Source: a virus (lineage: Duplodnaviria > Caudoviricetes). From it: a DNA stretch of 64,000 nt. The position numbers were made by a program, and so were the translations under genes. Of the stretch, positions 345 through 26,213 are shown piece after piece; position 1 is the stretch's first letter, and each line of letters begins with the position of its first letter. The DNA is taken from positions 1-64,000 of IMG/VR virus record IMGVR_UViG_3300030330_001955; one strand, written 5' to 3'. Below the pieces are notes generated by a model, which was not told the DNA's origin, did not search any database, and was given only the letters and a program-made list of their open reading frames with translations.

Positions 345-366
345 GATAATACATTTATTGCTTTCG

Positions 367-783
367 CTACCATTGATTATGTCGGGGGTCTGTTTGTTGT
401 TTGATAATCTTAAACTCATCGAGTATCTTACTATCAATCTTGAAACACTCTGTATGCCCCCCAAACTTGTGAGAAGGTTTGAACTTATCACATTCAAACT
501 TTCTGTGTAGCATTTGTTCTATACAAAATACTTCGTATAACGAACCGTGATATGTTCTTTGTATACGAAGGTCGTATCCTTGAAACCCTCTTGCTCTTTT
601 AATTACATGACGCCAGTCTTTACCACTAGCGATTCCTACTTTGATACACTCTCTTTCATAAGTCTTTTTGTTTACTAAGATTACTCCATAAAGCACTCCG
701 TCCCTTTCTCTTTCTTCAGGTCGTCTTGCAAAGTAAGTTTCATTGTATACTCCTACGGACATATTAAGCTCCGAGAGTAACAC
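367..783 (-). CDS. GIY-YIG-like (T5orf172/MUG113-type) protein
   Basis: LY...IKVGIA...R...EQMLH...GHTECF pattern. Confidence 0.55.
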   Translation of the reverse strand: MLLSELNMSVGVYNETYFARRPEERERDGVLYGVILVNKKTYERECIKVGIASGKDWRHVIKRARGFQGYDLRIQRTYHGSLYEVFCIEQMLHRKFECDKFKPSHKFGGHTECFKIDSKILDEFKIIKQQTDPRHNQW

Positions 784-1114
784 GCAAAATACCCATACCT
801 AAAATAAAGCAAGCCGCAGTATTTAGCATAATCAATGCTCTATCTTTCCACATAACAGATACTACAACCCAACCCGCGCAACCTGCGAAGGATAGGCATA
901 AATCTACAAAGGGCATGACCTGTGCACCACGAAGTACCATAGCTGTTAGCAATGTTAACGAAGACGCCCACTTGATATACCAGCTGACATCTTGTTTGGG
1001 TGTTGCACTTTTGTACCAACGATTTGAACCCTCTAACTCTTTCTTAGTGGGTATTTCTTTCTGCTTCGCTGAGTCTGTCATATTCCTCCAATAAAATTTC
1101 AAATGTTTCTTCAT
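764..1114 (-). CDS. Small membrane protein (true start probably ~1081)
   Basis: Three hydrophobic segments; WYIKW and WKDRALIMLN motifs. Confidence 0.6.
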   Translation of the reverse strand: MKKHLKFYWRNMTDSAKQKEIPTKKELEGSNRWYKSATPKQDVSWYIKWASSLTLLTAMVLRGAQVMPFVDLCLSFAGCAGWVVVSVMWKDRALIMLNTAACFILGMGILRVTLGA

Positions 1115-1229
1115 CTTGTTCTAAATCACTTCTAAAGGTTTCAATATCCATAGCTTCATGACCAGCAGGCACTTTAGCTACATAGACTCGGTAGGCTTTA
1201 TGTAGTTGTTCTTCTGTATATAATAACAT
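1044..1229 (-). CDS. Hypothetical protein
   Basis: Start codon overlaps the ligase stop; MLLYTEEQL..AY. Confidence 0.6.
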   Translation of the reverse strand: MLLYTEEQLHKAYRVYVAKVPAGHEAMDIETFRSDLEQDEETFEILLEEYDRLSEAERNTH

Positions 1230-2176
1230 TAGACTCTCCTCACTACTTTAGGGATAATCTCTCCACTACGGATAACTTCTACACTACAACCTATTTCTAA
1301 TCCTAACTCTTGGATAAATCCAAAATTATGTAAAGTTGCACGGCTAACCGTAGCACCACCAATGTTAATTGGTTCAAGTATTCCTACAGGAGCAACAATA
1401 CCAGACTTGCCAGTATTCCACTCCACATCAAGTAATTTAGTAACTACTCCCGCCTCTCTTGTTTTAAAGGCGTAAGCTCCTCTTGGGTGATGTGCTGTAA
1501 ATCCAAGTTCATCAAAATATTTATACTTATCGATTCTGAACACCGTTCCATCATGAGGGAACTCACTATAATCACTTCTAGTAATTACATTGAACCAATT
1601 ATCCAAGAAGGTCATGTCTTCTATCCAAAACCTTCCAAGATAGGGTTGAAGTCCGTAAGCAACAAACGTTAACTCACGACTTTTAAATTCTTCTACGCTT
1701 TTTAGATTGAGTGCTCCCGCTGCGTAATTCCTAGCGTTTTCTATTGTCTTTGGAGCAACAACCTCACCAGTTATTTGTCTTAGTCCATCAAATACTAAAT
1801 TGCCTATACTTTGAGGCACAATAGTTTTCATCTTATCTGTGATATCCAACCCCTCTTTGCCATCTCCTCTTGTCAATGCTTGAACTAAGATACCATCATA
1901 GTATTGTAAAGACACAGCTGCACCGTCCAGTTTTGGAGTGCATACTACTGATTCTTTTGGATTCCATGGTGGTGCTTCATCTTCTCCTGCAAAGACTTTT
2001 TGGAGAGACCTCATAGGGTATGGGTGGGGGAAGCGTTCTCCGTCTACTTTTGCACCGATTTTGTACTTTTGCGTACTACCTTCTACAATTCTATCGTAAA
2101 CATCATCTGCAATAAGTGGTTGACCTCTTTCGTAAGCCATGCGACACTTTGTGATATACGCTTCTATATTTTTCAT
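1229..2176 (-). CDS. ligA: NAD-dependent DNA ligase, subunit A of a T5-type split ligase
   Basis: KLDG adenylation motif, ALTRGDG, ARNYAAG, DGTVF, RATLHN; ends at RSGEIIPKV with no Zn-finger/HhH/BRCT part. Confidence 0.92.
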   Translation of the reverse strand: MKNIEAYITKCRMAYERGQPLIADDVYDRIVEGSTQKYKIGAKVDGERFPHPYPMRSLQKVFAGEDEAPPWNPKESVVCTPKLDGAAVSLQYYDGILVQALTRGDGKEGLDITDKMKTIVPQSIGNLVFDGLRQITGEVVAPKTIENARNYAAGALNLKSVEEFKSRELTFVAYGLQPYLGRFWIEDMTFLDNWFNVITRSDYSEFPHDGTVFRIDKYKYFDELGFTAHHPRGAYAFKTREAGVVTKLLDVEWNTGKSGIVAPVGILEPINIGGATVSRATLHNFGFIQELGLEIGCSVEVIRSGEIIPKVVRRV

Positions 2177-2183
2177 ATTATAT

Positions 2184-2224
2184 ATTTTACTACGTTTTTA
2201 AGTATTTGTCAAGAACTATTTTTT
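2184..2224 (-). promoter_or_regulatory. Sigma70 promoter with AAAATAGTTC upstream element
   Basis: TTGACA (2212-2207)-17-TAAAAT (2189-2184); ligase ATG 7 nt downstream. Confidence 0.85.
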
Positions 2225-2792
2225 ATCTACTTATCCTGTTTTCGTAGTCTGCATTTGTTTCGTCCCACCAATAAGGTTTATCTCGATATTTCCAGTCTGC
2301 GAAGACGGCTTTGTCTTTGTGATAGAACTCTCGGTAGGCTTCGATTGCACACTCTCGTTTGCAATCATCAGGCATTGCTTGTGCAAATGGGGTAAGCCCA
2401 ATGTCGGGGAGGTCAATGTCGGGTAAGCCCAAGACCATCTCAACGGATTTATGCACCTTTCCATATCGGTAGGTGTATTCATCTCCCAATGCAAGGGCAT
2501 AACAGTAGAGCCAGTCGTAGTTTGACTTGGAACTCCTAGCCCAGATGGTACAAGGGTGATTATACATAGTAGGGAGATATGGAAAATCCCTCGGTTCATT
2601 CTTTTTCTGAATGGAGACTTTTGCCCATTCATCTGATGTAAGTTTTCTGTCTGGTATGTATCCTGCATATTTCTGTGTCCAATGTACTGTGCATAGCATC
2701 TGTCCCGCTTCCAGCGGCATCTTGACGATATGCTTATCGACATGATACTCCGCGCACTTATCTAAATCTTCGTCAAGTATAAAAATATTCAT
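2223..2792 (-). CDS. Pyrimidine-dimer DNA glycosylase (DenV-like family)
   Basis: MNIFILD...DKHIVKMPLE..QML.T, NHPCTIWAR, FAQAMPD, AYREFY motifs. Confidence 0.85.
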   Translation of the reverse strand: MNIFILDEDLDKCAEYHVDKHIVKMPLEAGQMLCTVHWTQKYAGYIPDRKLTSDEWAKVSIQKKNEPRDFPYLPTMYNHPCTIWARSSKSNYDWLYCYALALGDEYTYRYGKVHKSVEMVLGLPDIDLPDIGLTPFAQAMPDDCKRECAIEAYREFYHKDKAVFADWKYRDKPYWWDETNADYENRISR

Positions 2793-2798
2793 GTGTAT

Positions 2799-2838
2799 AT
2801 TATACTAAGATTTTGAGATTTTGTCAAGAACTATTTTT
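2799..2838 (-). promoter_or_regulatory. Sigma70 promoter with AAAATAGTTC element
   Basis: TTGACA (2827-2822)-17-TATAAT (2804-2799); ATG 6 nt downstream. Confidence 0.85.
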
Positions 2839-3582
2839 TAGATACTTACTAAATAAGAAGTGTCCTTCTCTGTCTGTATGCCAAAAGCCAAGTCTGCTAC
2901 CAAAATCAGAGAGATTCTTTTCGGGAGACTTTACTAATACCTTTCTGTATACATCTTTAAAAAATTGTGTGTAAGGAGATTCAGGATTTAAATTTATTAC
3001 ACGAATGTCTTCACTAGGTTTTTTATCAAATATATCGAAGTTTTGTATAAAACTATACGAAATTCTTTTCTGGTCTAGGAAGTCCATGACTGCACTTATC
3101 TCCATCGCCCATACGGTAGCATAGTGATTATCCGAGTAATCTCCTGCATTACCATCTAAATCTTCATTGGCAAAATCATACCTGCCATCATTTGTTAACT
3201 TAAATATTCGTGTGGGTCTGAGCACAGGTAAATACACATGGTCATAGGACTTTAGTCGTCCTTGAAGATAATCCATCTTTATTGTTAGGTGTAAAAAATC
3301 ATTACTCAAAGCGGGCCAGGTTACTATTCTGGCATTGGGTTGAAATAAACTTGCCCAAGACTCGGGCAGTTGTCGTTGAGCAAAGTCAAAGACAGGCATC
3401 TTTGTGGCTCTACTCATTTTTTGATTCCAGTAAACTAAGGCTTGATGTAAACCAAACTGAAGTATTAAATCTTTCTTTTCTTTAAAACAGTCCCTGCCCA
3501 ATATGGAATCATGGTCAGATTCATACCCTGCAGTATGACTATCGCCATAAATATGAACAGGTCTATCATTGATATATCTCAT
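2824..3582 (-). CDS. SGNH/GDSL-like protein
   Basis: N-terminal IYGDSHTAG and C-terminal WHTDREGH. Confidence 0.5.
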   Translation of the reverse strand: MRYINDRPVHIYGDSHTAGYESDHDSILGRDCFKEKKDLILQFGLHQALVYWNQKMSRATKMPVFDFAQRQLPESWASLFQPNARIVTWPALSNDFLHLTIKMDYLQGRLKSYDHVYLPVLRPTRIFKLTNDGRYDFANEDLDGNAGDYSDNHYATVWAMEISAVMDFLDQKRISYSFIQNFDIFDKKPSEDIRVINLNPESPYTQFFKDVYRKVLVKSPEKNLSDFGSRLGFWHTDREGHFLFSKYLKNSS

Positions 3583-3868
3583 CGAGAGTATCCTTAAAGT
3601 GAGTTTCTAAAACATCTTTTGCTTCTGCTAAAGATATGATTTCAACTAGCCCTTCAAACAAACTCTTACTATTATTAAAATCAATAGCCATAGTTATACC
3701 CTCCTTACTAGGTTTCCATTCTTCATCAAAGTCTTGGTAGTATTTTCGGAGTGAAAGGTATTCTATACCTCTAAAAGTGTTTACTGTAAGAAATATCTTT
3801 TCATGTCTATCTTCATTATAGTGTATTTCTTTTTCGTAAATAGGTGGGGCTTCATGTAATTCTATCAT
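3566..3868 (-). CDS. PC4-like ssDNA-binding protein (T5 replication cluster)
   Basis: LTVNTFRGIEYLSLRKYYQDFDEEWKPSKEGIT is a PC4 signature. Confidence 0.85.
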   Translation of the reverse strand: MIELHEAPPIYEKEIHYNEDRHEKIFLTVNTFRGIEYLSLRKYYQDFDEEWKPSKEGITMAIDFNNSKSLFEGLVEIISLAEAKDVLETHFKDTLDEIYQ

Positions 3869-4124
3869 TTTTTAATATCTTGTTGAGAGGAACGATAGAT
3901 GTGACATTTTCAGGCTGCAGGAGTCTATAGGAATCTGTATCCCAGCAGAACAATAGAACTTGTCTTTGTGTAGGTTTTGCGCGATTCCTTTTGCTTTGTA
4001 TGTATTTATTATCAAAGTCAAGAGTACAGACGTTATACTTTAGTCTACGACTGTTCTGACTACGATAAGTTATCACAGCGTCACCTGCTTCGGTAACCTG
4101 TCTAATAAACTCGTCTTTTTTCAT
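3852..4124 (-). CDS. Conserved T5-like hypothetical protein
   Basis: Syntenic between D3 and the PC4-like gene as in T5; LLFCWDTDSYRL...V.SI..L. Confidence 0.65.
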   Translation of the reverse strand: MKKDEFIRQVTEAGDAVITYRSQNSRRLKYNVCTLDFDNKYIQSKRNRAKPTQRQVLLFCWDTDSYRLLQPENVTSIVPLNKILKNDRIT

Positions 4125-4255
4125 TCATTCCTTGTCGGGTTAGTTAATTTTAAGTTACCCAATAATGGTGTTGTCTTTGACGAGGTGATTTCTTTAGATG
4201 CAAAAATACGCAAGGGGACATAGCGTCGCCCTCGCGTTATTTGTTCTAGCGATTT

Positions 4256-4735
4256 CTAGCTGTTAGCTTTGTTTAGAAGTTCTGCAAAATAGTTAGCAGC
4301 TTTACCTGTTAGTTTAGAAATGATTGCTTCATCAGGTTCTAATCCCATATCTACAATCGCATCTTTAACAGACTGCTGAGCGTCAGCAACAGATACTCTG
4401 CCACCTCCACTACTACCATTACTAGAAGTGCTTCTAGCTGCAGGAGTCTTCTTAACATATACACCAGCCCTTGTCAAAATCATTCTAACACCATTTGGGC
4501 TCTCGCCTAATTCGGCAGCAATCTCTTTGACAACTTCCATACTATTTTCTGGAGTCGGTTCTTCTGCTGTATACATTTCAATCGCTTGCTGTTTTGCTTC
4601 ATCAGTCCAAGCCACTTTTCTTCTCCTATTTATTTTTCCAAATTTTTGTTCATATTCTTCTAATGTGGTTGTGTGCTTAAATCCAGGACACCAACCTGTT
4701 GCTTCTAGCATTTGTGTATAAAATCTATCGCTCAT
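4256..4735 (-). CDS. T5 D3-like DNA-binding protein (two in-frame starts: ATG 4735 and GTG 4615 with AGGAG)
   Basis: WT...SMEVVKEIA...SPNGVRMILTRAGVYVKK...IISKLTGKAA resembles T5 D3. Promoter TTGACA(4785)-17-TATAAT(4757) overlaps the track start at 4765. Confidence 0.8.
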   Translation of the reverse strand: MSDRFYTQMLEATGWCPGFKHTTTLEEYEQKFGKINRRRKVAWTDEAKQQAIEMYTAEEPTPENSMEVVKEIAAELGESPNGVRMILTRAGVYVKKTPAARSTSSNGSSGGGRVSVADAQQSVKDAIVDMGLEPDEAIISKLTGKAANYFAELLNKANS

Positions 4736-4795
4736 TAAAATCCTATTTATTGTTATATTATACATAAGAATAAGGGCGATGTCAACTACTATTTT

Positions 4796-5179
4796 TTAGA
4801 AGGTAAAACCAAAGGTCTCTAAATCAGGCTGAACTATGTCAGCAACTACATCTATCATCTCTTGTGTATACCATCTTTTGTATTCCGTTGATATCTCTAA
4901 CTTATTAAAATCTATGTTATTTTCCTCAGGTTTTAACTTATAAGTATCTATTGCATTTTTCCAATTATCTAAGTGCGTAACTATGTCTGCATCAGCATAA
5001 AGCTCTGCTTGTGGGATAATTGTTTCATGTTCTAAAAATTCAGATAAAGACCTGTATCCCCACGAACTTTTATAGAGTGCTATAATTCGTTCATAGGGGT
5101 TGCGTAGAAATGCAACTGTTCCTTTTACTTTTCGCTTTCCTTTACGAACTGTGTAAGGAATCAATAAACTTTGTTTCAC
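4796..5179 (-). CDS. Sulfotransferase-family-like protein (short)
   Basis: FLRNPYERI..Y and C-terminal Y.....D...FG.F motifs. Confidence 0.5.
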   Translation of the reverse strand: MKQSLLIPYTVRKGKRKVKGTVAFLRNPYERIIALYKSSWGYRSLSEFLEHETIIPQAELYADADIVTHLDNWKNAIDTYKLKPEENNIDFNKLEISTEYKRWYTQEMIDVVADIVQPDLETFGFTF

Positions 5180-5327
5180 GTGCTAACTCCGATGCCAACA
5201 TTTTAGCATCATCAACTAGCTGTGGCAAAGTTTGTGTATTTCTAGTGTCTATATTATGTAGCTTATCTAACAGGGCTGTTAGTTTTACACTACATTGTTG
5301 GGGCGTATGATGTACTGCCTCGGTCAT
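5142..5327 (-). CDS. Hypothetical protein
   Basis: Overlapping operon arrangement. Confidence 0.5.
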   Translation of the reverse strand: MTEAVHHTPQQCSVKLTALLDKLHNIDTRNTQTLPQLVDDAKMLASELARETKFIDSLHSS

Positions 5328-5518
5328 AGTTCATTTACCTCTAATAACTTATCTCGAGCCTCTGCAATTATTTGCAGTTGAGTATCGATTGTTGTAAGCA
5401 CTTCTGGGTGGTCTCCTGTGCCTACAGGGTTTTCTAAAAATATCTGTATGTTTGCTTGCGCCTCAGCTATTATACCTTTGTATTTTAGTCTGAGTGCGTT
5501 AATTATCATTTCTTTCAT
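5324..5518 (-). CDS. Conserved phage hypothetical protein
   Basis: ANIQIFLENPVGTGDHP motif common in marine phages. Confidence 0.7.
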   Translation of the reverse strand: MKEMIINALRLKYKGIIAEAQANIQIFLENPVGTGDHPEVLTTIDTQLQIIAEARDKLLEVNEL

Positions 5519-5781
5519 TCTTTTTCTACCAAATTCATAACATATGTTCTTACGAATAAATCTCTATGGTCGTCCCAAAGAACTGTTGTTATGAGTAACG
5601 GAGCAGTAATTAAAGTTCCTACTCCAAATATTAACCATGTAATTGGCCACCACTTTACTGAATTATGTCCTTCAGTATAACGATTGAGTGTCAAAATCGA
5701 GGGCATGAATATTCTAAACTGTATTATTAACCAAGTTGATAACCACGCTGCTCCAATTATATTAAGTAATGTTAACTCCAT
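5515..5781 (-). CDS. Membrane protein
   Basis: Two hydrophobic helices, in operon. Confidence 0.55.
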   Translation of the reverse strand: MELTLLNIIGAAWLSTWLIIQFRIFMPSILTLNRYTEGHNSVKWWPITWLIFGVGTLITAPLLITTVLWDDHRDLFVRTYVMNLVEKE

Positions 5782-6499
5782 ATTGCTCCAAATGCTTTAA
5801 GCTTGCTAAATCGTAAGCCAAAGAAAAGGAGTGATAACCTACTCTATTCCCATCTAACCATGGAAAATAAGAGTTACTCAGGTCTACTGGAGTAAGAACG
5901 TATATTGCATATCCTTTACTTCCATACTTTTCCTCATAATTAACAGGAGGTTTTATGTAGCCTGGCATTGAGTTCATATACTCAACTGTTTGTTCTCGTT
6001 TGATTTCAGCAATAGCATTGTCTTTTACAGACCATACTTTTTCACCTTCTTCAAACTCTTCTCTAACACATTCATCTGGAATCATCTCGTATCTGTGTCT
6101 ATAACATTTGGAGTGCTCTTCCTTTGATAACTTCCTAGGAACACCTACTCTTTCGATGATTGCTTTAACAAATGAGTTAGAACGATAGAGTCCTTTTGCT
6201 ATCTCAGAAATATTATCTCCTTCAAGATAGCACTCTATAACAGTTTTTATCTCATCACGGGTTGCCCCTTTACCACGATTCTGTGACTTTCGCCTTTCAC
6301 GGTATTCCGCCATATCAGAATAGTCATCTATGATTTTCTGAAGACGGGTCGTGTTATACCTTATATTCAGAATCTCACAGGCTTCTTTCTTGGTTATCGG
6401 AGAGTCGCCACCTAGTAAACCAACTACTTTTGCTATGTTATCATTTGATAACTTTTCATGTTTTGCTGCTCTTACTGTTCCCACTCTCTTTCTTCCCAA
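5762..6499 (-). CDS. T5 D2-like protein
   Basis: TKKEACEIL, YLEGDNISEIA..LYRS, EEFEEGEKVW, LASLKHLEQYGV match T5 D2 as recalled. Confidence 0.8.
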   Translation of the reverse strand: MGRKRVGTVRAAKHEKLSNDNIAKVVGLLGGDSPITKKEACEILNIRYNTTRLQKIIDDYSDMAEYRERRKSQNRGKGATRDEIKTVIECYLEGDNISEIAKGLYRSNSFVKAIIERVGVPRKLSKEEHSKCYRHRYEMIPDECVREEFEEGEKVWSVKDNAIAEIKREQTVEYMNSMPGYIKPPVNYEEKYGSKGYAIYVLTPVDLSNSYFPWLDGNRVGYHSFSLAYDLASLKHLEQYGVNIT

Positions 6500-6771
6500 T
6501 CATCTACACATCTACTATATAATATTATTGCGTAATGCATAATTTTGAGAAGGTCGCCAAGGTTATCTCCTTTCTTACCATATCTCATTGCATACTTTAT
6601 AATATTCCCTGCACAAAACCCTTCACCATGTCCCGAATCCCAAATGATTTCAGTAGCTTGAAAACTACCTTGGGCATAGTGTTGGTTGTATGTAGCATCA
6701 ATATACTCTTTTAATCTTTTGAGTATTTCATCTTCGGAGTATTTGTAATCGATTTGGTTATAACCTTCCAT
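6472..6771 (-). CDS. DUF3310/nucleotide-kinase-like protein
   Basis: QHY...GHGEGFCAGNIIKYAMRYGKK...DLLKIMHYA. Confidence 0.75.
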   Translation of the reverse strand: MEGYNQIDYKYSEDEILKRLKEYIDATYNQHYAQGSFQATEIIWDSGHGEGFCAGNIIKYAMRYGKKGDNLGDLLKIMHYAIILYSRCVDDWEEREWEQ

Positions 6772-6980
6772 TACTTTAACTCGTCTAATACATCAATGCC
6801 ACCTTCAATCTTAGCTAGGTATTCTTTCTTTAGTGCAAGTCTACCCTCTAAGACCATAATCTCTTCTTCAACTACTTTTCGTTGAACTTCTAAATTGTTT
6901 TTAAGAACGGCTCTATGTTCGACCATATCATCTTTTAAGACTCCCATCAGTCCTTCCATAGTTTGTTCATTCTTCGCCAT
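6771..6980 (-). CDS. Coiled-coil hypothetical protein
   Basis: Operon position, heptad pattern. Confidence 0.6.
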   Translation of the reverse strand: MAKNEQTMEGLMGVLKDDMVEHRAVLKNNLEVQRKVVEEEIMVLEGRLALKKEYLAKIEGGIDVLDELK

Positions 6981-7206
6981 GTCTTGCTCCGTGTGTTCTA
7001 TAACTTCGAAGTAGACTTTGACTTCCGTTCTTCTTAATCATTCTTAAGTTCCTGCGCAGGTGTAAATCAACCTTGGCTTTTTGAAACCATGCTTGTCTTT
7101 CTTCATCTGTCCAAGAACTAGGAAATACTGCACGCATACCATCTAATTCGTATGCACGCTTTCCATCATCTTCGATATTGTTTTCTAAAAATTCTCGTTT
7201 ATCCAT
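6967..7206 (-). CDS. Hypothetical protein
   Basis: First ORF after the structured leader at 7221-7378. Confidence 0.55.
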   Translation of the reverse strand: MDKREFLENNIEDDGKRAYELDGMRAVFPSSWTDEERQAWFQKAKVDLHLRRNLRMIKKNGSQSLLRSYRTHGARHGEE

Positions 7207-7220
7207 AATTGTAAAAGAAG

Positions 7221-7378
7221 GGTTGACTAGATAAATTCTCTGTCTGGACAGCTACATAGACCTAAAAGTTTCGCCTTTCATTACTTTTTGCTGTGTTATT
7301 AACTTATTTAGCGTTCACACGCCCTGTCAATGTGTAGGCTCGTTTTCTAGAAGGTTTCTGTTCACTACCTAGTCAACC
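7221..7378 (-). ncRNA. Candidate ~160-nt structured RNA or leader
   Basis: 13-bp terminal stem GGTTGACTAGGTA/TATCTAGTCAACC, internal GCGT-GTGA-ACGC and AAAAGT/ACTTTT hairpins; own promoter TTGACA(7459)-17-TATAAT(7431). Confidence 0.6.
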
Positions 7379-7486
7379 ACAAAACTGAAACTCCATTTAT
7401 TTGAGTTAGAGTTTATTTTATATATGATATATTATACTAAAATTTTCAAGTTCTGTCAAGAACTATTTTTCAGTTCCTATAATCAA

Positions 7487-7855
7487 TTACTTACTGTTAA
7501 TCTTATCTTTCGCTGTTCCAGCATATAAGCCAAACCATGCAGCACCTGCACCAACTATAATAGAGATTAGTCCTGATTGCTCGAGTGATGGGTCTGGTAA
7601 ATCCATAAACCACATTGTTGCATAGTATAGTAAGAATATATACACACTAAGAAAAGCTCTTGGAAAGATTCTCCAAGCATCTATCATTGCTGATAAATGA
7701 ATCCATCTTTGCCATGGATTTACTTTATCTTCATTCTCTAACATAAATATCTTTTGCTTTAGTTCATTATTTTCTTGAATCATCTCCATAAACTTATTAA
7801 GGTCTATTTCAACTTCATTCCGTGACATATCGCCACTAAATCGCTCGTCAGCCAT
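7487..7855 (-). CDS. Coiled-coil plus two-TM membrane protein (possible holin-like)
   Basis: IDAWRIFPR...WFM.L..P..EQSGLISIIVGAGAAWFGLY. Confidence 0.6.
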   Translation of the reverse strand: MADERFSGDMSRNEVEIDLNKFMEMIQENNELKQKIFMLENEDKVNPWQRWIHLSAMIDAWRIFPRAFLSVYIFLLYYATMWFMDLPDPSLEQSGLISIIVGAGAAWFGLYAGTAKDKINSK

Positions 7856-8564
7856 TTATGTCTCCAATCCAATCATACCAAGACTTCCTACTTCCTCCTT
7901 TCCAACTGATTGGGTCGGTGAAGTGGTAGGAAATTGATATTCTCGGGCCTAGGGTATCTACCCTGTGGTATAGTTTCTTCGGAAGGTATAATAAATCTCC
8001 TTCGTTCAAATCTAATACCTTATTTACTGTTGCATCTTCAGGCGGACAATCCCATTCGTATTCATTCATGATATACCAACGAACTGTTCCCCTGACATGG
8101 AACAGAAAATTTTCAGTAGAATCGCAGTGCGTTTTAAAACAATGTGCGTCTTTTTTAGAAGAGCAATACAAATTTGCACAACCTCTACCATAATATTTTT
8201 CAAACTTTACGCATTGATTCCACATAGTTTTATTTAGAAACTCACATAAAGTTAGCACAAATGTATCTCCTCTTTTCCAATGGCTATACATTTCATCTTT
8301 CTTCATTTTTACTTTAGCTTTCTTATGACAGTATTTATCGCCCTTTTCATTTATAATCTGGCATTGTGGTAATCTGTCATAACCATTTAAGTCACTAGAG
8401 TTTAAATACTCATCTAACTCTTCCCAACTAAAATGATTGAATCTATCTGTATTATCTTTTGCTACAAACCACTTTTTATTACGAAACTCTTTCTCGAAGC
8501 GTTCTAGTCCCATTGGTAATAAATCTTCTAACTCTACACTCTTATCCAAAATCAAACACCCCAA
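7848..8564 (-). CDS. JmjC/cupin 2OG-Fe(II) oxygenase
   Basis: ANLY, H-x-D (THCD), L.EGDLLYLPK..YH.V, RISIS. Confidence 0.8.
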   Translation of the reverse strand: MGCLILDKSVELEDLLPMGLERFEKEFRNKKWFVAKDNTDRFNHFSWEELDEYLNSSDLNGYDRLPQCQIINEKGDKYCHKKAKVKMKKDEMYSHWKRGDTFVLTLCEFLNKTMWNQCVKFEKYYGRGCANLYCSSKKDAHCFKTHCDSTENFLFHVRGTVRWYIMNEYEWDCPPEDATVNKVLDLNEGDLLYLPKKLYHRVDTLGPRISISYHFTDPISWKGGSRKSWYDWIGDING

Positions 8565-8979
8565 ATCTTACGCCCCAAACTGTGAAGCAATATCTTGTTC
8601 CTTTAGTAACTGGTGTAACCCAATGTAAAAAATGTGGGTGAAATAGAAAACAATCACCTGCTTCTAAAGTAATCTTCTCGTCATTAACAAAGAGCTTTCC
8701 TCCCTTAAAATCATTATTCAATAGTATACTAGCCGAGTGTGTTCTTAAGTTATGCTTGAGACTATCTCTATGTGGAGCAAAGCTTTCACCAACTTCATAC
8801 TTCTGAATCGCAAATGTTGGTTTACTTGGCTGGACTAGATTTGTTACCTTTGCTAATATACTGTCAGAGATTTGGAAGTCTGTGCACTCATGGCGTTCTT
8901 CCACAACTGGAACTGTTCCCATATTTTCTATGAGAAGTCCACATTCTGATTTGCTAAGAAAATTCTTTTTGAGTATCAT
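8542..8979 (-). CDS. Prolyl-4-hydroxylase-like 2OG-Fe(II) oxygenase
   Basis: KY..G..F.PHRD, LNNDFKGG.L, HWVTPVTKGTRY; start trimmed to MILKK, which overlaps the upstream stop. Confidence 0.8.
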   Translation of the reverse strand: MILKKNFLSKSECGLLIENMGTVPVVEERHECTDFQISDSILAKVTNLVQPSKPTFAIQKYEVGESFAPHRDSLKHNLRTHSASILLNNDFKGGKLFVNDEKITLEAGDCFLFHPHFLHWVTPVTKGTRYCFTVWGVRFGVFDFG

Positions 8980-9542
8980 GTATGTTTCGCATGCATTGCA
9001 TGTAGCTCTTTTGTAGGAATATCTCCTAGCTCCCTCAATATAAACCAACTTACAACTGAGTGTCTTACTCCTTTTGTTACTGGCTTAACTCTATGCATTA
9101 GGTTAGGAGCAAATAAACATGCGTCTCCCTTTTCCATTTTCATTACACCAAAGTCTTTAAACTCAAACTCACCACCCTCATACTCAGAGGGGTCGTTTAG
9201 TTGCATTGTTAAAGATAGTTTTCTATAACCAAAACCAGACCCGTCTTTGTGCCAGTTATAATACTCTCCTTCATTATAAGTTGTTATCTGTATAATTTCA
9301 GGAGTATAGATTGGTTCCTCTATAATATCATAAATCCACTTTTCTAAAAGTTCTATACCTCTGTGTTGAGGTTCTCTTCTCATTATATATCTTACTGAAG
9401 AATCTCTTTCTTTAAACTCTCTTTTATCATCACCATGAGCAAAACCTTTCATTGCCATATGTGTTTCAAATGTGCTCATGACTATATCTTTAAATTCGCC
9501 GTGTAATGCGTTTTTAATTATTTCTGGCTCTTGGTAAAACAC
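8976..9542 (-). CDS. PKHD-type 2OG-Fe(II) oxygenase
   Basis: YNWHKD, RKLSLTMQLNDPSEYEGGE, HRVKPVTKGVRHSVVSW. Confidence 0.88.
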   Translation of the reverse strand: MFYQEPEIIKNALHGEFKDIVMSTFETHMAMKGFAHGDDKREFKERDSSVRYIMRREPQHRGIELLEKWIYDIIEEPIYTPEIIQITTYNEGEYYNWHKDGSGFGYRKLSLTMQLNDPSEYEGGEFEFKDFGVMKMEKGDACLFAPNLMHRVKPVTKGVRHSVVSWFILRELGDIPTKELHAMHAKHT

Positions 9543-10312
9543 TAAAACTCCTCTGGGTGAGCTATCTTTCTTACTTCATATGCATACTTCCATAATAAGT
9601 TTACTAAGTCTGGTCTTGGGTGTGGAGACTTACCATGTGGTGTATACTTAGGGTGCCATGGCTGTGAACTCAATCCTGTCCAATGTAGCTGATATATTTC
9701 TCCTATATCGTAGCTTCCACCTAATTTTCTGTTTTCTGCACCATCTAGCTTAGGGTCATCAGTAATAAATCCATCAAATGAGTTCCATTTACTACTTATT
9801 GGGTGAATTACATCATTTTCCCTAGACTTAGGTGCTCCTGCGTTTTTCATAAAATCATACTTGTAAACATTTGTTGACTTAGCTATCTCCGCGTTCGGTG
9901 CCAAGTGCTCTTTTGCTTTCTCGCAATCAATTAACATCACGCTATCACTATACCAACCTCTAGCATACTCTGTATCTGCGTATTGCATTCCATTATGATT
10001 TAGCCCGTCCCAAACCATACCAAATGCTTTACCTTTTAAATCTATGTTCCAAAGTAACGCAACATCTTTCAAGTTTAGTTGGTCTACATCAAAGTATATT
10101 GCTTTTCCTTTATATTGACACATGCCAGGAATTGCATATCTAAAACAGGTAAAGGGTGTCCCCCAACCTCTCGTGTTCCATTCAGGAAACATACTAGGTC
10201 GTAAGAAAGTAATCTCTAGGGGTTGTGATGTATGCTTATATAGTGAGTATACTAAGATTTGTTCTATGAATCTATCTTCGGTCTCAGAAGTTCCTACAAA
10301 AATTCTTATCAT
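9542..10312 (-). CDS. Glycosyltransferase (GT8-like)
   Basis: IRIFVG, TPFTCFRYAIP, AIYFDVD (DxD), SVMLIDC, LHWT....QPW. Confidence 0.8.
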   Translation of the reverse strand: MIRIFVGTSETEDRFIEQILVYSLYKHTSQPLEITFLRPSMFPEWNTRGWGTPFTCFRYAIPGMCQYKGKAIYFDVDQLNLKDVALLWNIDLKGKAFGMVWDGLNHNGMQYADTEYARGWYSDSVMLIDCEKAKEHLAPNAEIAKSTNVYKYDFMKNAGAPKSRENDVIHPISSKWNSFDGFITDDPKLDGAENRKLGGSYDIGEIYQLHWTGLSSQPWHPKYTPHGKSPHPRPDLVNLLWKYAYEVRKIAHPEEF

Positions 10313-21229: not shown

Positions 21230-21850
21230 TTACGCTTGGCTTAAGATTTCTACAACTTTTGTGATTAGAGCCAATCTGCCATCTGCTTTGTCATTGTAGT
21301 CAATGGTGTGCCACTCGCCTAGTGTAGTCAATACTCGCTCTTTCAAAAGTGTCATCTGGTCGTATTTTGATAAAGCCAGTGCATCATTGGGTGAGAATTT
21401 CCAACTGGTTAGCGGGCTTGATTGTCTTTTCTCAATGCGATACTCTTGTTCTTCTTCGCTGATTGACAACCATAGCTTGATGAATTTTACATCTTGCTGT
21501 GCTTCCCAGTCCAATACTGACGCCATGAAGTCTTCATACTGTTCATCAGAACACCAGCCGTTTAGCTTTTGAACCATTGCTCTTGAATACCAACTTCTGT
21601 CGAATAATACCATTTGATTGTCAGATGGCAGTTTGTGTTGCCATGACTCTAGCCAGTTGTCCATATCCCATTTGCTCGGCATATTGCTGAACGATACAGA
21701 ATACTTGCTAGTTGGTAGATAGTGAGTGAACTCACGGATTGTGCCAGTCTTACCAGCAGTATCTCTACCCTCAAGCACTATCGCAACTTTACCGAAGTCT
21801 TGTGCGACTAGCTCGTTTAGTTTGATTTGTTGTGCTTGTAGTTTTGTCAT
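21230..21850 (-). CDS. ppk2: Polyphosphate kinase 2
   Basis: LEGRDTAGKTGTI Walker A, FDRSWYSR Walker B, IKLWLSIS.EEQ..R, WKFSPND; promoter TTGACC(21926)-17-TATAAT(21898). Confidence 0.92.
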   Translation of the reverse strand: MTKLQAQQIKLNELVAQDFGKVAIVLEGRDTAGKTGTIREFTHYLPTSKYSVSFSNMPSKWDMDNWLESWQHKLPSDNQMVLFDRSWYSRAMVQKLNGWCSDEQYEDFMASVLDWEAQQDVKFIKLWLSISEEEQEYRIEKRQSSPLTSWKFSPNDALALSKYDQMTLLKERVLTTLGEWHTIDYNDKADGRLALITKVVEILSQA

Positions 21851-22335
21851 GTCGTTCTCCTAATCATTTAGAAACTAATTTTTCTAAATATGGGTATATT
21901 ATATCACGCCTTTATGGTTCGGTCAATTACTTTTTAACGCGAGCATTAAAAAATTAACGCCGACAATTTCGGGGGGCGGGACGCGACCTTTGGCGGGTGT
22001 GTGGTAAATTGCTCCAAAAAACGCTAAAATCGTCTAAAAACTACTTAAAACTTCGCATAACCCCGCAAAAGCTCGCGCAAGTTTTTTCTTGACTCGGCAC
22101 TATTGGCCGTGTTATACTATACAGGGTGAGGAGGGAGGGATACCCGCGCGTACACAAAATTTAATCGTCATTTTACTACTTTGGCGCGGGTTCACGCGCC
22201 CCCGTTGCAAACCCTTTGTTTATCGGTGTTTCAGGCAGCTGTGCAGACTGACGAATGCAATCTTTTTTGAGACAATTTTAAAAAATCTCTTGACATGCCT
22301 TAGGTGGTATGATATAATCGGCGCGATTTTGCGGG

Positions 22336-22355
22336 TGTGGATAACCTGTGGATAA
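22336..22355 (-). promoter_or_regulatory. Two tandem perfect DnaA boxes (third, TTATGCACA, at 23030-23038)
   Basis: TGTGGATAA at 22336-22344 and 22347-22355, the reverse complement of TTATCCACA. Confidence 0.75.
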
Positions 22356-22436
22356 GTTTTTTGAAATTTCTTGTGCCAATCCCTTGACAAGCGTCAAAAA
22401 ATCCTTATAATAGTATACATAAATAAGGAGAAAGAA

Positions 22437-22601
22437 ATGGCAGAAATGAAAAAAGTAGAAAAAAGCAAAAGACCAAGCAAAAAAGTTCTCATGGCAGAAA
22501 TCGAGCAAATGGGAGTAGACAAAACAATTGTCGCTTCTCTAGCTAGAGCAAACATTGACACAATGCAATTTGTCAAAGAGCTTGTAGCAAAGTCACAATA
22601 A
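22437..22601 (+). CDS. Small protein, paralog of 24727-24879
   Basis: AAGGAG RBS; K.PSKK.LM.EIE...SL.R.NI; terminator ATACCCGC-AAAA-GCGGGTAT-T7 at 22672-22697. Confidence 0.75.
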   Translation: MAEMKKVEKSKRPSKKVLMAEIEQMGVDKTIVASLARANIDTMQFVKELVAKSQ

Positions 22602-22963
22602 TCGACTGAGCGAGTAGATACCTCAACGCTAGACAGATGTCCCTATTGGCACGGGACAGATGTTGCCAAAAATACCCGCAAAAGCGGGTATTTTTTTATG
22701 CTAACCCCTTGACACGCTTCGAAAAATATGGTAAAATACTAGGGTGGGGGGAGGGATACCCGCAGAGACTCGCCGCCGAAAAAACTTTGAAAAAATTTAA
22801 GAAAACCCTTGACAAGCACCCGTCGCTGTGGTATAATCGGTGCGGTCGCGCGTTTGTAAAACAAAAAATTACTTCATCACTCTACTACTGGCGCAGAGCG
22901 ACACTCGCACGTAATAAAATAAAATCATCGTCACACTACTACTGGCGCGGCTGCGCCGCGGAC

Positions 22964-23012
22964 AAAAAAAAAGCGGGAGCGAATCCACAAATAAATGTGA
23001 ATCCGCTCCCGC
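22964..23012 (-). terminator. Terminator of the putative pre-early operon
   Basis: GCGGGAGCGGATTCACA/TGTGGATTCGCTCCCGC followed by T9 on the minus strand. Confidence 0.75.
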
Positions 23013-23050
23013 GATTTCCCCCAAATATCTTATGCACAGATTTTTGAGTA

Positions 23051-23515
23051 TTAAGCCGAGTGATACAAAAACCAATATTGCGGAGCGGGGCAAGTAAACC
23101 CCAATTCGCTCATAGCTTTTCTTATGTCCGCCCTATCATCAAAGAAGATTTTTTCGCGTTGCTTAACGCTCGGCAAGTTAATCCTCTTTTTGATTTTAGC
23201 TAATTTGTAGGAAACATCTTCGCGGTTATCGTTCCTATCTCTCGACAGAATCAAATCCGCTCCACCTATCCCCAAATTATCGAGCAAGTCTTTATCCGCT
23301 CGGCTCAAAGTTCGAGAAGTGCAAATCCAAGTTCTAATATTAGAATCAGATATACAATCTCGCATAAATGAAATGAGCGGAAGTTCGCTATCGCCCAAAA
23401 TTTGCTCCCTCGTATGAGTTCGCCAATTTTCGAGATTTATTCCGCCCTTTTCATTTGTTAACGCTCTATGAGATGAATCAATTACAGTTCCATCTAAATC
23501 AAAAACCGCAATCAT
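23051..23515 (-). CDS. HAD-family phosphatase (PNK-phosphatase-like)
   Basis: MIAVFDLDGTVIDS, CTSR, K, FFDDR motifs; start trimmed. Confidence 0.85.
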   Translation of the reverse strand: MIAVFDLDGTVIDSSHRALTNEKGGINLENWRTHTREQILGDSELPLISFMRDCISDSNIRTWICTSRTLSRADKDLLDNLGIGGADLILSRDRNDNREDVSYKLAKIKKRINLPSVKQREKIFFDDRADIRKAMSELGFTCPAPQYWFLYHSA

Positions 23516-23704
23516 AAAGACCACCCACAGAACACCCCTAAAGAGAAAGCCACCAAGAAGGTAAATAAAAATCTCCAAAAGTAGCTTTCCGCTCTCCATT
23601 CTTTTTCTCTTAAAGTCATAATTTCTCCCAAAATTAAAGTTAATAAAAGTAGTCGCTAGTTTTTGGAGCGGGGCGACAAGTCCCGCCAACTTCTATGGGA
23701 GAAG

Positions 23705-24490
23705 TTATTTTTTTATTCGCTTCTGCATTTTTGCTTTAGCGGATAATTTCTTTTTGAGCATAACCCAAGAAACAGTTTTTGGATTACCAAGAAAAGTTTT
23801 CTCAAAATCCTGTTTATGTTTTCTTGCGAAATGTCGGGCTAGTTCAAATTCCATCTTCGAATCTTCGAGGGCGGTATGTTGCTCCTCGTATTGCTCCGCG
23901 TCAAAAATCCACCTTGCCATACATTGAGCGGAATACCCATAATTTTTCCCGCTCTTGCTCATAAATTGGAGTTTATCAATTTCATCTAATTCGTTAATCA
24001 TTTTAAAATAATTCAAATTGATTTCCTTATTAGCATAACAATCCATAATGCACCAATTCGGAATCCGCTCGAATTCTCGATATTTCTCATTGTGAAATTC
24101 TAAAACAGTTTTATTAAATGCCTGTTTATCAAAGTTCCAATTATAAGACGCTATCGAATCAGCAAAACCAATATGTTTTGAAATGTAATTCAAAATATAT
24201 TTTAGAGGTTTAATTTTGCTCCGATTCTTGAAAGCGTCATTTAATACATGAGCATATCGCCTATCGTATTTCCAAAATTTCCTTTCGCCTGTTTCCTTGT
24301 CCTTGTAAGTATGGACAAAGTTTTCAGGATTCGAAATTATCTCTTGAACATAGAAATCGAATTCTAGCGGTTGAGAATTGGGCGAGTAAATATCGCCCAA
24401 CGCTCCGCCTATGTTATACGCGAGAAATGGCTTCTCGTTTTTCATAGTCGTTTCAGTATCTATAACAAGTGCGTTATGTCGCTTACGCAT
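23705..24490 (-). CDS. DEDDh 3'-5' exonuclease
   Basis: LVIDTET, SYNWNFD, HTALEDS; start at MRKRH. Confidence 0.85.
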   Translation of the reverse strand: MRKRHNALVIDTETTMKNEKPFLAYNIGGALGDIYSPNSQPLEFDFYVQEIISNPENFVHTYKDKETGERKFWKYDRRYAHVLNDAFKNRSKIKPLKYILNYISKHIGFADSIASYNWNFDKQAFNKTVLEFHNEKYREFERIPNWCIMDCYANKEINLNYFKMINELDEIDKLQFMSKSGKNYGYSAQCMARWIFDAEQYEEQHTALEDSKMEFELARHFARKHKQDFEKTFLGNPKTVSWVMLKKKLSAKAKMQKRIKK

Positions 24491-24671
24491 TATAACCCCC
24501 TTTTTCAAAAAACCCGCTTTCAACGAGTTCATTATAGACCTTACGCCCCTCATCAATCGTATATTCAGTCTCGCCAAATTTACGCTTTTCTGCGGAGTTC
24601 TCGTGATACCATTCATTAAAAGTGGGCGTTTTATGTCCACCAAATGAAAAGTTAAATGATAATTGTTTCAT
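24483..24671 (-). CDS. Hypothetical protein
   Basis: GGGAGA RBS; PTFNEWY.ENS.E...FGE..Y. Confidence 0.65.
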   Translation of the reverse strand: MKQLSFNFSFGGHKTPTFNEWYHENSAEKRKFGETEYTIDEGRKVYNELVESGFFEKGGYNA

Positions 24672-24726
24672 ACAATCTCCCATAAAAAGAGGGCATATCT
24701 ACCAACGCGATACGCCCTCGGTTAAA

Positions 24727-24879
24727 TTACCCTTTCAAGAGTTCACGAATAGCAATTATATTTGCTATGTTAGTTCTCGAAAGAGACACCAAATCAAAAA
24801 CCTTGTTTTTATCAAGATTTTCAATCTCTCGCATTAGCTCCTTTTTAGAAGGTGCTTTTGCTTTCTTTTCCTTTTCCAT
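24727..24879 (-). CDS. Small protein, paralog of 22437-22601
   Basis: GGGAGA RBS; KAPSKKELMREIE...SLSRTNI. Confidence 0.7.
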   Translation of the reverse strand: MEKEKKAKAPSKKELMREIENLDKNKVFDLVSLSRTNIANIIAIRELLKG

Positions 24880-24933
24880 GATTATTCTCCCATAAAAAAA
24901 GAGGGTATGTTCATTAGGCACATACCCAAAAGC

Positions 24934-25281
24934 CTATACAGTAAGAGCATACACGAACAGAAAACCATTCGAGCATATCCCTATAAACTCGCCAACAGCA
25001 TACACCCATTCTGTGCGATAGTTCCTTATAGCTCTCGCCATATAGAAACATAATCCGCACATTACCAAGCCTGTTAAACTTGCTGGAGGTGGAGTTCCAC
25101 CATTCACAAGAACATTAAACAAGCTCGGAAATGTAGCAATGTTTACGAGTATCAAGCCACAAAATACCAAGGTATTATCTACCTTGATTTTTTGCTTTTC
25201 GATTCTTTTCATTTCTTCCAAGTGGGGCAAGTAATCCCGCCCCACAATTCCGAAAGTAGATTTTTTATGTAGTTGTTTCAT
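24934..25281 (-). CDS. Three-TM membrane protein
   Basis: Same ATGGGAGATTGTATGAAACAA start context as 24671. Confidence 0.65.
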   Translation of the reverse strand: MKQLHKKSTFGIVGRDYLPHLEEMKRIEKQKIKVDNTLVFCGLILVNIATFPSLFNVLVNGGTPPPASLTGLVMCGLCFYMARAIRNYRTEWVYAVGEFIGICSNGFLFVYALTV

Positions 25282-25751
25282 ACAATCTCCCATATTAAGT
25301 AGTTAATTAAATTGTCAATTTATCCTGTTTTTCAGTCTGTTAAATAATCTTTTTAACAAGTGGCGAACATTATCGCTTGTCAGGTGGTAGCTCTCGCTTT
25401 TAACCGAGACGCCTAGAGTTTGATTAGTTCCTCGTCATCAGGCTCGGGGTGTTTAATTCTTTTCCTTGAATATATGTATATATTACATGAAAAGTCGCCT
25501 AAATTAAACCTTTTTAACCCTTTATTTTTAATTATTTTTATGAGTGGAAATATGAAAATAGTTCTTGTATTTGATTCAATAGTATGGTAAGGGCGGTTAA
25601 TAGACCTAACACACGCTCACGCTCAGGACCCCTCCGCACGTACAACTTTTGAAAATTTTGCGAACAATCAATTAACGCCGTACAGCGCATCATGATGATG
25701 CTCTTAAAAATTTTTCTTGACAAGGAAGTTAAAATGGAGTATAATTAACCT

Positions 25752-26213
25752 ATGAAAAATGAAATTGCAGTAAAAATGAGTCCAGAAGGATTAGAAGTGG
25801 CGAACACTTATTTAGAACTTGGTAGTGTAGGAGAGGTTTGTACTAAACTTGCTCTCGATGAGAATACTGTTAGCGAATATCTTAATAAACGCGAAGTCAA
25901 ACAATACATCGACCAAGTCTATCTAGATACCGGGTACAGAAACCGTTTTAAAATTGCTAGCGCACTCGATAACATCATAGAAGAGAAGTTAGCGGAAGTT
26001 GAAGAAACTGGAATGTACACTAATAAAGACGTTGCTGACCTCTTACAAATGGCTCATAAAATGAGAATGGACGAAATAAAAGCTATGGCAGAATTAGAAA
26101 AAGCTAAAACTGCCCCTATAAAACAACAAGCTAACATTCAAATAAATGAGATGCCTTTTGGTCAAGGTAATTACGGCAAACTCATGGAGAAGTTAATTGG
26201 CGAAAAGAATTGA
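25752..26213 (+). CDS. terS: Terminase small subunit (T5-type)
   Basis: MSPEGLEV..TYL, EVKQYID.VY.DTGYRNR, KL.E.EETG, AHKMRMDE closely parallels T5 TerS; promoter TTGACA(25717)-17-TATAAT(25740). Confidence 0.85.
   Translation: MKNEIAVKMSPEGLEVANTYLELGSVGEVCTKLALDENTVSEYLNKREVKQYIDQVYLDTGYRNRFKIASALDNIIEEKLAEVEETGMYTNKDVADLLQMAHKMRMDEIKAMAELEKAKTAPIKQQANIQINEMPFGQGNYGKLMEKLIGEKN

Follow-up and report, generated by a model that had tools for sequence, protein, structure and literature searches.

Strand-specific loss of ACT beside nick-like motifs in an uncultured clade of T5-like phages

Why should a common trinucleotide be nearly erased from one strand of a phage genome over a few kilobases, while its reverse complement is retained on the same strand? 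This question is raised by bases 1–64000 (the window) of a 102,910-bp IMG/VR phage contig (IMGVR_UViG_3300030330_001955, hereafter G000). Direct count in the interval 22944–25805 of its + strand gives only four ACT (23689, 24987, 25078 and 25645), each within AACT, against 61 AGT, in exact agreement with the first-pass annotation of this DNA, which had also reported that TACT, CACT and GACT are missing here. Judged by the remainder of the window 69 copies of ACT are expected in this interval, or 55 by the reverse-complement rate. Elsewhere the word is as frequent as was claimed: the genome contains 2,516 copies (~24 per kb), and the density drops, to 1, 1 and 8 per kb, solely at 23–26 kb. This desert also holds the three longest ACT gaps of the window, and no second common trinucleotide has a comparable gap in the 102.9-kb genome, where similar ratios are reached only by rare GC-rich words (CCC, GCG, CCT) at expectations of 15–30.

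Extent and conservation of the ACT desert

The right limit of the desert was corrected by comparison with relatives. Initially it was placed at 25805, inside terS, but in related phages normal ACT density returns at a conserved GTACRACT (window 25640–25647). The interval 25648–25805, which includes the start of terS, lacks ACT in the window genome only and is a chance extension of about 160 nt. The element under study is therefore defined as follows.

22944–25644, + strand: ACT desert proper, from the last nick-like motif to the conserved GTACRACT; three ACT (all AACT), about 60 AGT

Codon-shuffled controls, proposed by the first-pass annotation along with a comparison of related phages, were made for the five minus-strand genes of the desert (2,181 coding nt). 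If the same proteins are encoded with bulk codon usage (2,000 runs), 33.8±4.4 sense AGT are obtained (minimum 20), and permutation of synonymous codons within the desert genes gives 15.7±3.0 (minimum 7), while only 2 are observed, far from either expectation. Since even the permuted control exceeds the observed value, AGT is avoided across codon junctions too. Serine is retained in these genes by means of AGC and TCN codons in place of AGT, and this switch, together with the junction avoidance, argues for selection rather than for one mutational signature; deamination of ACT to ATT, for instance, is unsupported for the same two reasons. Non-coding DNA of the desert (529 bases) contains no ACT and 11 AGT.

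The same desert was present in all four contigs recovered with a protein of the segment first called at 312 aa (61–89% identity). The survey was then based on IMG/VR loci anchored at terS, for which 80 of 402 candidate stretches were retained. In an unbiased scan of all 64 strand-specific trinucleotides, performed for 46 related loci of 9 kb or more, ACT formed the strongest desert in 34 loci and ranked second or third in four more. Taken together, 21 non-identical deserts (2.3–4.2 kb each, 69 kb in total) contain 87 ACT versus 1232 AGT, and the disproportion becomes even larger for the extended word: 19 YACT versus 491 AGTR. Five pooled deserts have one TACT, no CACT and no ACTA, with 124, 57 and 89 expected, respectively, and the surviving copies are mostly AACT(T/C). 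The purge spans a clade with G+C content from 27 to 38%. Several relatives (L039, L052, L069, L029/L074 and L047/L051) deviate from this pattern, some having YACT-GGCGC copies with a partial desert and others having neither; they look like stages of gain or decay, and L039, L052 and L069 resemble decaying cases.

The base composition of the region has some other peculiarities. The observed-to-expected ratio of CpG at window positions 22000–26000 is 1.1–1.4, compared with ~0.6 in the rest of the genome, and CCGC, CGCC, GCGG and similar words are enriched 3–7 times in pooled deserts, which avoidance of ACT alone does not account for. Enrichment of GCGC as such was considered and rejected, since the window desert has a single GCGC and its CpG excess comes from other words. 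An excess of ACT (44–63 per kb) was registered at G000 67000–70000, where it coincides with a Thr-rich fibre gene (ACT is a Thr codon).

The purge follows the DNA strand, not the transcript

All genes of the segment are encoded on the minus strand in the window, so explanations at the level of RNA and of DNA are not separable there. It was proposed in the first-pass annotation that pre-early mRNAs avoid AGU in order to escape a sequence-specific RNase, and to this we add a context-specific mutational bias on the transcribed or single-stranded strand. The uniform gene orientation in the window is what such explanations predict, and the desert stops 20 nt beyond the terminator of the minus-strand cassette. 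Relatives, however, separate the two levels. Deserts of L058 and L045 contain + strand genes that have homologues in other loci as well as ribosome-binding sites; for one pair of + strand desert genes the ratio of nonsynonymous to synonymous substitution rates (dN/dS) is 0.33 at dS of 0.86. In L058 and L045 these genes have no ACT in 429 and 800 nt but 10 and 20 AGT, respectively, including AGT codons for Ser, and real + strand genes lacking ACT and keeping AGT are found in the desert of L018 as well. Thus, the purge stays on the same DNA strand when the gene orientation flips, and the avoided word does not follow the sense strand of genes, as it should if an mRNA interferase or another RNase were escaped. 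This independence rejects AGU avoidance in mRNA; protection of the template strand, also considered, is ruled out by the same + strand genes. The 54-aa + strand gene adjoining the motif of the left edge has several AGT, while the choice of AGC and TCN for serine, which does not correspond to one type of transition, and the avoidance of AGT at codon junctions disagree with mutational bias. Explanations of this group are therefore highly improbable.

Nor does the purge belong to particular genes. PPK2 lies inside the purged segment in L068, L087, L062 and L038, and in the window it is located just outside the desert (21230–21850) and is rich in ACT. The purge is positional, tied to one DNA strand and not gene-specific.

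Edges of the desert and the left end of T5

As judged from its genes, the phage represents a distant, uncultured clade of T5-like (Demerecviridae-related) phages. Its TerL is ~50% identical to those of My1 and of Vibrio, Serratia and E. coli T5-like phages; PHROG matches were found for terS, portal, head and major tail protein; and the early region carries a T5-style replication set (Pol A, DnaB-like helicase, SbcCD-like pair, flap endonuclease, ResIII helicase and ribonucleotide reductase). The phage database contains no cultured close relative: nothing in it matched the region at the nucleotide level, and tblastn with the exonuclease encoded in the desert gave no hit either.

Natural nicks (single-chain interruptions) of phage DNA are confined to one strand, and their consensus is TACT/RTGMC for phage tf and R/GCGCRGG for T5, where many relaxed “minor” nicks are also known (PMC3517423). 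Motifs that join the TACT/R of tf with the R/GCGCRGG of T5 are found at the left edge of the desert.

22935–22957, + strand: proximal boundary motif, ACTACTACT, with GGCGC and the hairpin GGCGC-GGCT-GCGCC; aligned to the T5 7.9% nick
22884–22894, + strand: second copy of the motif, CTACTACT-GGCGCAG
22175–22200, + strand: third, distal copy, ACTACTTT-GGCGCG hairpin; ~760 nt upstream, likewise in relatives

These are the three TACTACT(T)GGCGC repeats of the first-pass annotation, found again at 22174/22175, 22883/22884 and 22935, and its statement that the desert begins directly after the last of them holds both for the window and for nearly all relatives with a strong desert. The proximal motif fits the T5 consensus if cut as ACTG/GCGCGG. 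The window + strand sites ACTG/GCGCGG, ACTG/GCGCAG and TTTG/GCGCGG fit N-R/GCGC-R-G, with TACT directly upstream as in tf, and the three motif sites are the only occurrences of GGCGC[AG]G on the + strand of the genome.

Nearly all loci have their desert directly behind the last ACT of an ACT-rich run abutting a GC hairpin with GGCGC, for instance between CACTACTACT and GGCGCGGCTGCGCC or between cACTtcACTttgccACT and GGCGCCCGCGCGCC. Two or three copies of YACT-N0-5-GGCGC are located at this edge on the + strand in 21 of 23 strong-desert loci (in the other two the motif is absent), while none of the 23 has it there on the minus strand. Two copies are separated by 40–55 nt and the third lies 550–760 nt further, all on the + strand. 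YACT is clustered 2–4 times directly 5' of the G/GCGC hairpin in every nick-like site, and the last 100 nt before the left edge contain 5.4 ACT on average, versus ~1.9 per 100 nt just upstream. Minus-strand copies of YACTGGCGC inside the deserts of L082 and L068 were rejected as signals, since they belong to coding sequence without an A-rich leader or hairpin and are tolerated. The motif cluster of the window is also spanned by its longest + strand AGT gap (22613–23047, 434 nt); a mirror ACT gap was observed beside the motifs in L002 and L004, not in L005.

Upstream of the desert the motifs are embedded in DNA that resembles another element of T5.

21960–22934, + strand: region like the T5 injection-stop signal, with promoters, DnaA boxes and one 54-aa gene (22437–22601)

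It has five strong + strand promoters (22089, 22290, 22384, 22709 and 22809) and tandem DnaA boxes, TGTGGATAA, at 22336–22355. A palindrome reminiscent of the Fur box, AAATGAGAATCATTCTCATTT, is common to the injection-stop repeats of T5 (L008 9540–9720) and to the clade (L012 2640–2680, L068 3110–3140, L058 4760–4800). It often stands just downstream of promoters ending with TATAATCGGYGCG and may be an operator.

Such an origin-like flank can be taken as an indication that the avoided word is a primase site. Primers would then start at 5'-(Y)ACT-3' on single-stranded DNA, (ACT)n clusters would be priming hot spots, and the purged strand would remain unprimed when displaced or used as a lagging-strand template, so that the repeat stays single-stranded, for instance as a 3' tail for strand invasion or concatemer formation. 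Primases usually recognise words of such a size, with a core of 3 nt and a preference for certain flanks (GTC for T7, GTT/GCT for T4); the purge strictly concerns one strand, however the genes are oriented; and the genome has a T5-like replication module. Size and strand-specificity are, however, the only features of ACT/YACT that fit a word of this kind. One act of priming should hardly be costly, but YACT is nearly gone; homology, moreover, relates the boundary motif to a mapped T5 nick and to no known origin. Besides, the origins of T5 lie mid-genome (Davison; 10.1101/866236). Avoidance of priming is therefore unlikely, although it stays among the live rivals.

The homology with T5 concerns both edges. 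In the T5 record the left terminal repeat occupies positions 1–10219, with dmp beside the end, the injection-stop signal is annotated at 9140–10149 and the major nick at 9748/9749 on the minus strand, with N-R/GCGC-N given as the nick consensus; three annotated nick sites read RA/GCGCAGGG. The left edge of the clade aligns with this major (7.9%) nick, AAAA/GCGCAGGG on the minus strand plus palindrome, in the same strand polarity. The order of elements is common to both: GCGC site, GC palindrome, spacer, then AATGCGAATGA(G/T)AATC..ATTCTCATTT. An element AATGCGAATGAGAATC..ATTCTCATTT, shared by the T5 stop signal and relatives, lies downstream of the nick-like site. On a larger scale the blocks (early genes, stop-signal-like region, pre-early cassette, terS) follow as in T5 read backwards, and the nick-bearing strand has T5-like polarity towards the genome end.

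The right edge is formed by a conserved block, beyond which terS and its promoter flank the segment.

25591–25647, + strand: right-boundary block, GGGCGGTTAATAGAC (25591–25605), GGACCCC ending at 25632 and GTACAACT (25640–25647); conserved
25717–25745, + strand: terS promoter, outside the conserved desert
25752–26213, + strand: terS, outside the conserved desert

In relatives the block has the consensus GGGG(C)GGTTAnTAGAC ... GGACnCC ... CACGTAC(A/G)ACTT and is located 111–113 nt upstream of terS where no extra genes intervene. The reverse complement of the first 100 nt of T5 aligns with it (GGCGGTTAGCAGAC against GGCGGTTAATAGAC), so that the element is homologous to nt 1–50 of the T5 left end, including nt 36–50, and T5 base 1 aligns with window position 25632, 13 nt before the conserved ACT at 25645.

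Thus, the segment shares with the left terminal repeat of T5 its place in the gene order between terS with late genes and the early genes, the Dmp homologue, paired DnaA boxes together with AATGAGAATCATT-type palindromes, a GCGC-hairpin site on the strand equivalent to that of the mapped nick and an end block aligned with nt 1–50. It differs in that the pre-early cassette is ~10 kb long in T5 but ~2.7 kb long and inverted in the clade, which lacks A1 and A2 and has a DEDDh exonuclease instead; the ACT-rich run 5' of the nick-like site and the trinucleotide desert are found in the clade only. By homology, the desert would correspond to the interval from the first nick/stop site to the genome end on the nicked strand, i.e. 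to first-step-transfer (FST) DNA.

Conserved elements at both edges, of which the right one is homologous to a genome end and stands 110 nt upstream of terS, are also what one would expect from a packaging signal. Terminase or a companion nuclease may track one strand, become armed by the YACT-GGCGC cluster and cut at the next permitted site, in which case the terminal repeat must be free of the word on the tracked strand; a strand-specific purge that is independent of transcription is compatible with this. But in one subclade and in T5 GACT occurs ~45 nt inside the conserved end block, and the first ACT is consequently not at a fixed cut position. We know of no terminase that reads a word of 3–4 nt. 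The direction of T5 packaging has, moreover, been reported inconsistently (PMC3517423). A signal linked to terminase is thus a live but rather improbable rival.

One side observation relates to the ends of the record itself. The first 278 nt of G000 (1–278) repeat its last 278 nt (102633–102910) with few mismatches, while the record is labelled linear. This overlap indicates a circular assembly of ~102.6 kb, and the break point is then uninformative on physical ends.

Pre-early genes and the possible reader of the word

The desert contains the following minus-strand features.

22963–23012, minus strand: intrinsic terminator of the cassette, 17-bp stem followed by T9; ends ~20 nt before the first minus-strand AGT
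23051–23689, minus strand: HAD-family phosphatase of 212 aa, homologue of T5 Dmp (34% identity, E 6e-14); start codon uncertain
23705–24490, minus strand: predicted DEDDh 3'-5' exonuclease of 261 aa, ATG at 24490; DxE, NxxxFD, HxAxxD
24483–24683, minus strand: 66-aa gene, its stop codon overlapping the exonuclease start
24727–24921, minus strand: small open reading frame of 64 aa at most, without family match
24934–25293, minus strand: 119-aa gene without family match

The Dmp homologue is present across the clade; T5 Dmp is a pre-early 5'-deoxyribonucleotidase. The reading frame first called at 312 aa starts at 24490, and its DxE, NxxxFD and HxAxxD motifs are invariant. In a fold search its structural model (mean predicted local distance difference test score, pLDDT, 75.5) matched DnaQ, RNase T, TREX and 3'hExo folds, while a profile search of solved structures with the alignment gave no match. 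Based on its motifs and predicted fold, the 261-aa protein is a DEDDh 3'-5' exonuclease. No homologue of A1 or A2 was found in the genome or in relatives, and with a nuclease and a Dmp homologue the cassette looks like a small analogue of the T5 pre-early set (nuclease plus phosphatase of deoxyribonucleoside monophosphates). The genes at 24483–24683 and 24934–25293 have a common leader and start (GGGAGATTGTATGAAACAA; MGDCMKQL...), which suggests a duplicated translation-initiation cassette. No RNA family of Rfam was detected at 19–27 kb.

Outside the segment, genes of the early region at G000 82804–84309 and 99542–100912 code for an asparagine-synthase-like amidotransferase and a NodU/TobZ-type carbamoyltransferase, with PPK2 nearby; these enzymes might act on nucleotides or DNA. 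GATC is depleted ten-fold genome-wide (34 versus 353 expected), being completely absent from 1–29580 and 90009–102910, i.e. from the early-gene arms, and CCGG (11 versus 127), GGCC and ACGT are depleted too, which looks like classical avoidance of restriction sites.

We give a probability of roughly 0.45 to the reading that the segment is FST DNA purged of YACT, the word at the core of a strand-specific nicking signal that belongs to the phage itself. The segment would be the terminal FST part of the terminal-repeat region in this uncultured T5-like clade. It would extend from a cluster of single-chain interruptions of T5 type, at the place of the T5 7.9% nick, up to the DNA homologous to the physical left end of T5, with the DEDDh 3'-5' exonuclease standing in place of A1 among the pre-early genes. 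The purged strand would be the strand of the nick sites, having its 3' end at the entering terminus, and a phage-encoded strand-specific nicking activity would use YACT as its core recognition word. Any lone YACT on this strand would then be at risk of “minor” nicking, at low frequency, and in the DNA that enters first the damage could not be repaired before pre-early expression. It would either expose a 3'-OH to the pre-early 3'-5' exonuclease of the phage itself or cause a premature pause or break of delivery. As long as only the first segment is inside the cell, the purged strand would be the sole phage strand offering 3'-OH ends to the exonuclease. Because minor nicks would be harmful in first-entering DNA, the interval from the terminus to the first programmed nick would be kept free of YACT on the strand at risk. 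The near-total loss of single copies suggests that even one copy is harmful, and cooperative binding agrees with this less well than an irreversible enzymatic event, for example a cut. Nicking of the motifs, the terminal position and first entry of the segment and the reading of YACT by a nickase are what we infer. The view of the first-pass annotation that the repeats are polar DNA signals with a purged adjacent segment is thus supported in outline by the one-strand purge, by the edge at the last YACT-GGCGC and by the homology with the T5 nick and stop signal, a nickase, primase, terminase or stop being candidate readers.

Precedents exist for separate parts of this scheme. Ejection of T5 DNA in vitro pauses at the positions of nicks (PMC2771126). 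Co-evolution of nickase and its sites was proposed by the authors of the tf study (PMC3517423). In T5/BF23, phiKMV-like and tf/LUZ24-like phages all interruption sites likewise lie on one strand, but there full sites of 7–9 nt are placed on it, whereas in the clade a core word of 3–4 nt is erased over kilobases beside putative sites. EcoRI sites are absent from T5 FST DNA (Davison; 10.1101/866236), and the clade resembles T5 in that selection would act specially on the DNA that enters first, against sites open to cleavage. In T5, however, it is a palindromic 6-bp host site with few copies expected, while each genome of the clade has lost ~65 expected copies, all of them from a single strand.

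Several points weigh against the nicking scenario. No strand-specific desert of 3- or 4-mers was found in the terminal repeat of T5, and T5 nick sites have no ACT upstream, so that the YACT component must be specific to the clade. The density of YACT is normal on the rest of the + strand. Were this word sufficient for nicking, nicks would be numerous throughout the bulk genome, and the model needs them to be tolerated or repaired. In the bulk genome ACT within 10 nt upstream of GCGC was registered 10 times on the + strand versus 16±3.4, a deficit that is not significant and only weakly suggestive, and 12 times versus 12.2 on the minus strand. Contig ends of relatives, used as a proxy for physical ends, showed no consistent position. 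Finally, T5 mutants without nicks are viable, and nicks may therefore matter little. Mention of the genes sciA/sciB is made in PMC3517423.

The presence of nuclease genes in the segment allows another interpretation, based on self-immunity. How T5 FST DNA escapes A1-dependent degradation is an open question (10.1101/866236; 10.64898/2026.04.02.716235), and Davison suggested that the sites under attack are missing from it (10.1101/866236). In a variant of this published idea (10.1101/866236; 10.64898/2026.04.02.716235) a YACT-dependent endonuclease, together with the DEDDh exonuclease and Dmp, would shred host DNA, and FST DNA would have its sites on one strand only, so that neither opposed nicks nor head-to-head site pairs arise, as with T7 and EcoP15I; the YACT cluster at the edge would be a deliberate site of cutting or release. 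The segment does encode an exonuclease and a Dmp homologue, and the density of sites on its opposite strand is normal. There is a precedent in T7, where DNA with EcoP15I sites in one orientation is refractory to this enzyme, as to others needing opposed sites (PMC3874151). Both cases have a short asymmetric word in one orientation only, but in T7 the bias concerns a 6-bp host site and is genome-wide, whereas in the clade it is local (2.3–4.2 kb) and affects a word of 3–4 nt from which the boundary signal of the phage is itself built; over the genome as a whole neither ACT nor AGT is rare. Four facts disagree with self-immunity: no endonuclease was recognised among the genes of the segment; its gene content varies between subclades, while the purge is constant; sites abound on both strands of second-step DNA, for which separate protection would be required; and the edge motif stands at the homologue of a virion-DNA nick, which is a late function. 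We consider this variant a live rival of low probability.

The purged word may also be read by the host from the entering DNA end, for example as a protospacer adjacent motif (PAM) of CRISPR, when spacers are taken from the DNA that separates the free end from a Chi-like site, or by a host nuclease acting on the 3'-ended strand. In T5 only the FST region is vulnerable to CRISPR and EcoRI (Davison; 10.1101/866236), and the purged strand would carry the 3' end at the entering terminus. Nevertheless, the clade that has been purged of this one word is wide, with different G+C content and presumably different hosts, and the word is built into the conserved boundary motif of the phage itself, which makes a host-side motif quite improbable. 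To our knowledge, no PAM or Chi fits YACT.

More tentatively, one can suppose that throughout the clade the first-injected DNA is defined and protected “by absence”: a phage enzyme may read YACT, a word of 3–4 nt, on one strand, and between the genome end and its first programmed cluster the word would have been erased, so that the length, integrity and stop or release point of FST DNA may be written as a tract without it.

Three questions on T5 have stood for sixty years: the reason for nicks on one strand, the cause of the halt in first-step transfer and the survival of the first-injected DNA while host DNA is destroyed. The signature described here, a ~14-fold ACT/AGT asymmetry over 69 kb of independent sequence, links nick-like sites, a genome end and pre-early nuclease genes and points to a strand-reading phage enzyme, with YACT as the candidate word and with the strand named. 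Definition “by absence”, if true, would provide a sequence-level answer, in a relative of T5, both to the purpose of nicks and to the escape of FST DNA from the DNA destruction caused by the phage itself. The result also shows that functional segments, here likely a terminal repeat, can be revealed by scanning each strand for short words in metagenomic phage contigs whose termini were lost on assembly.

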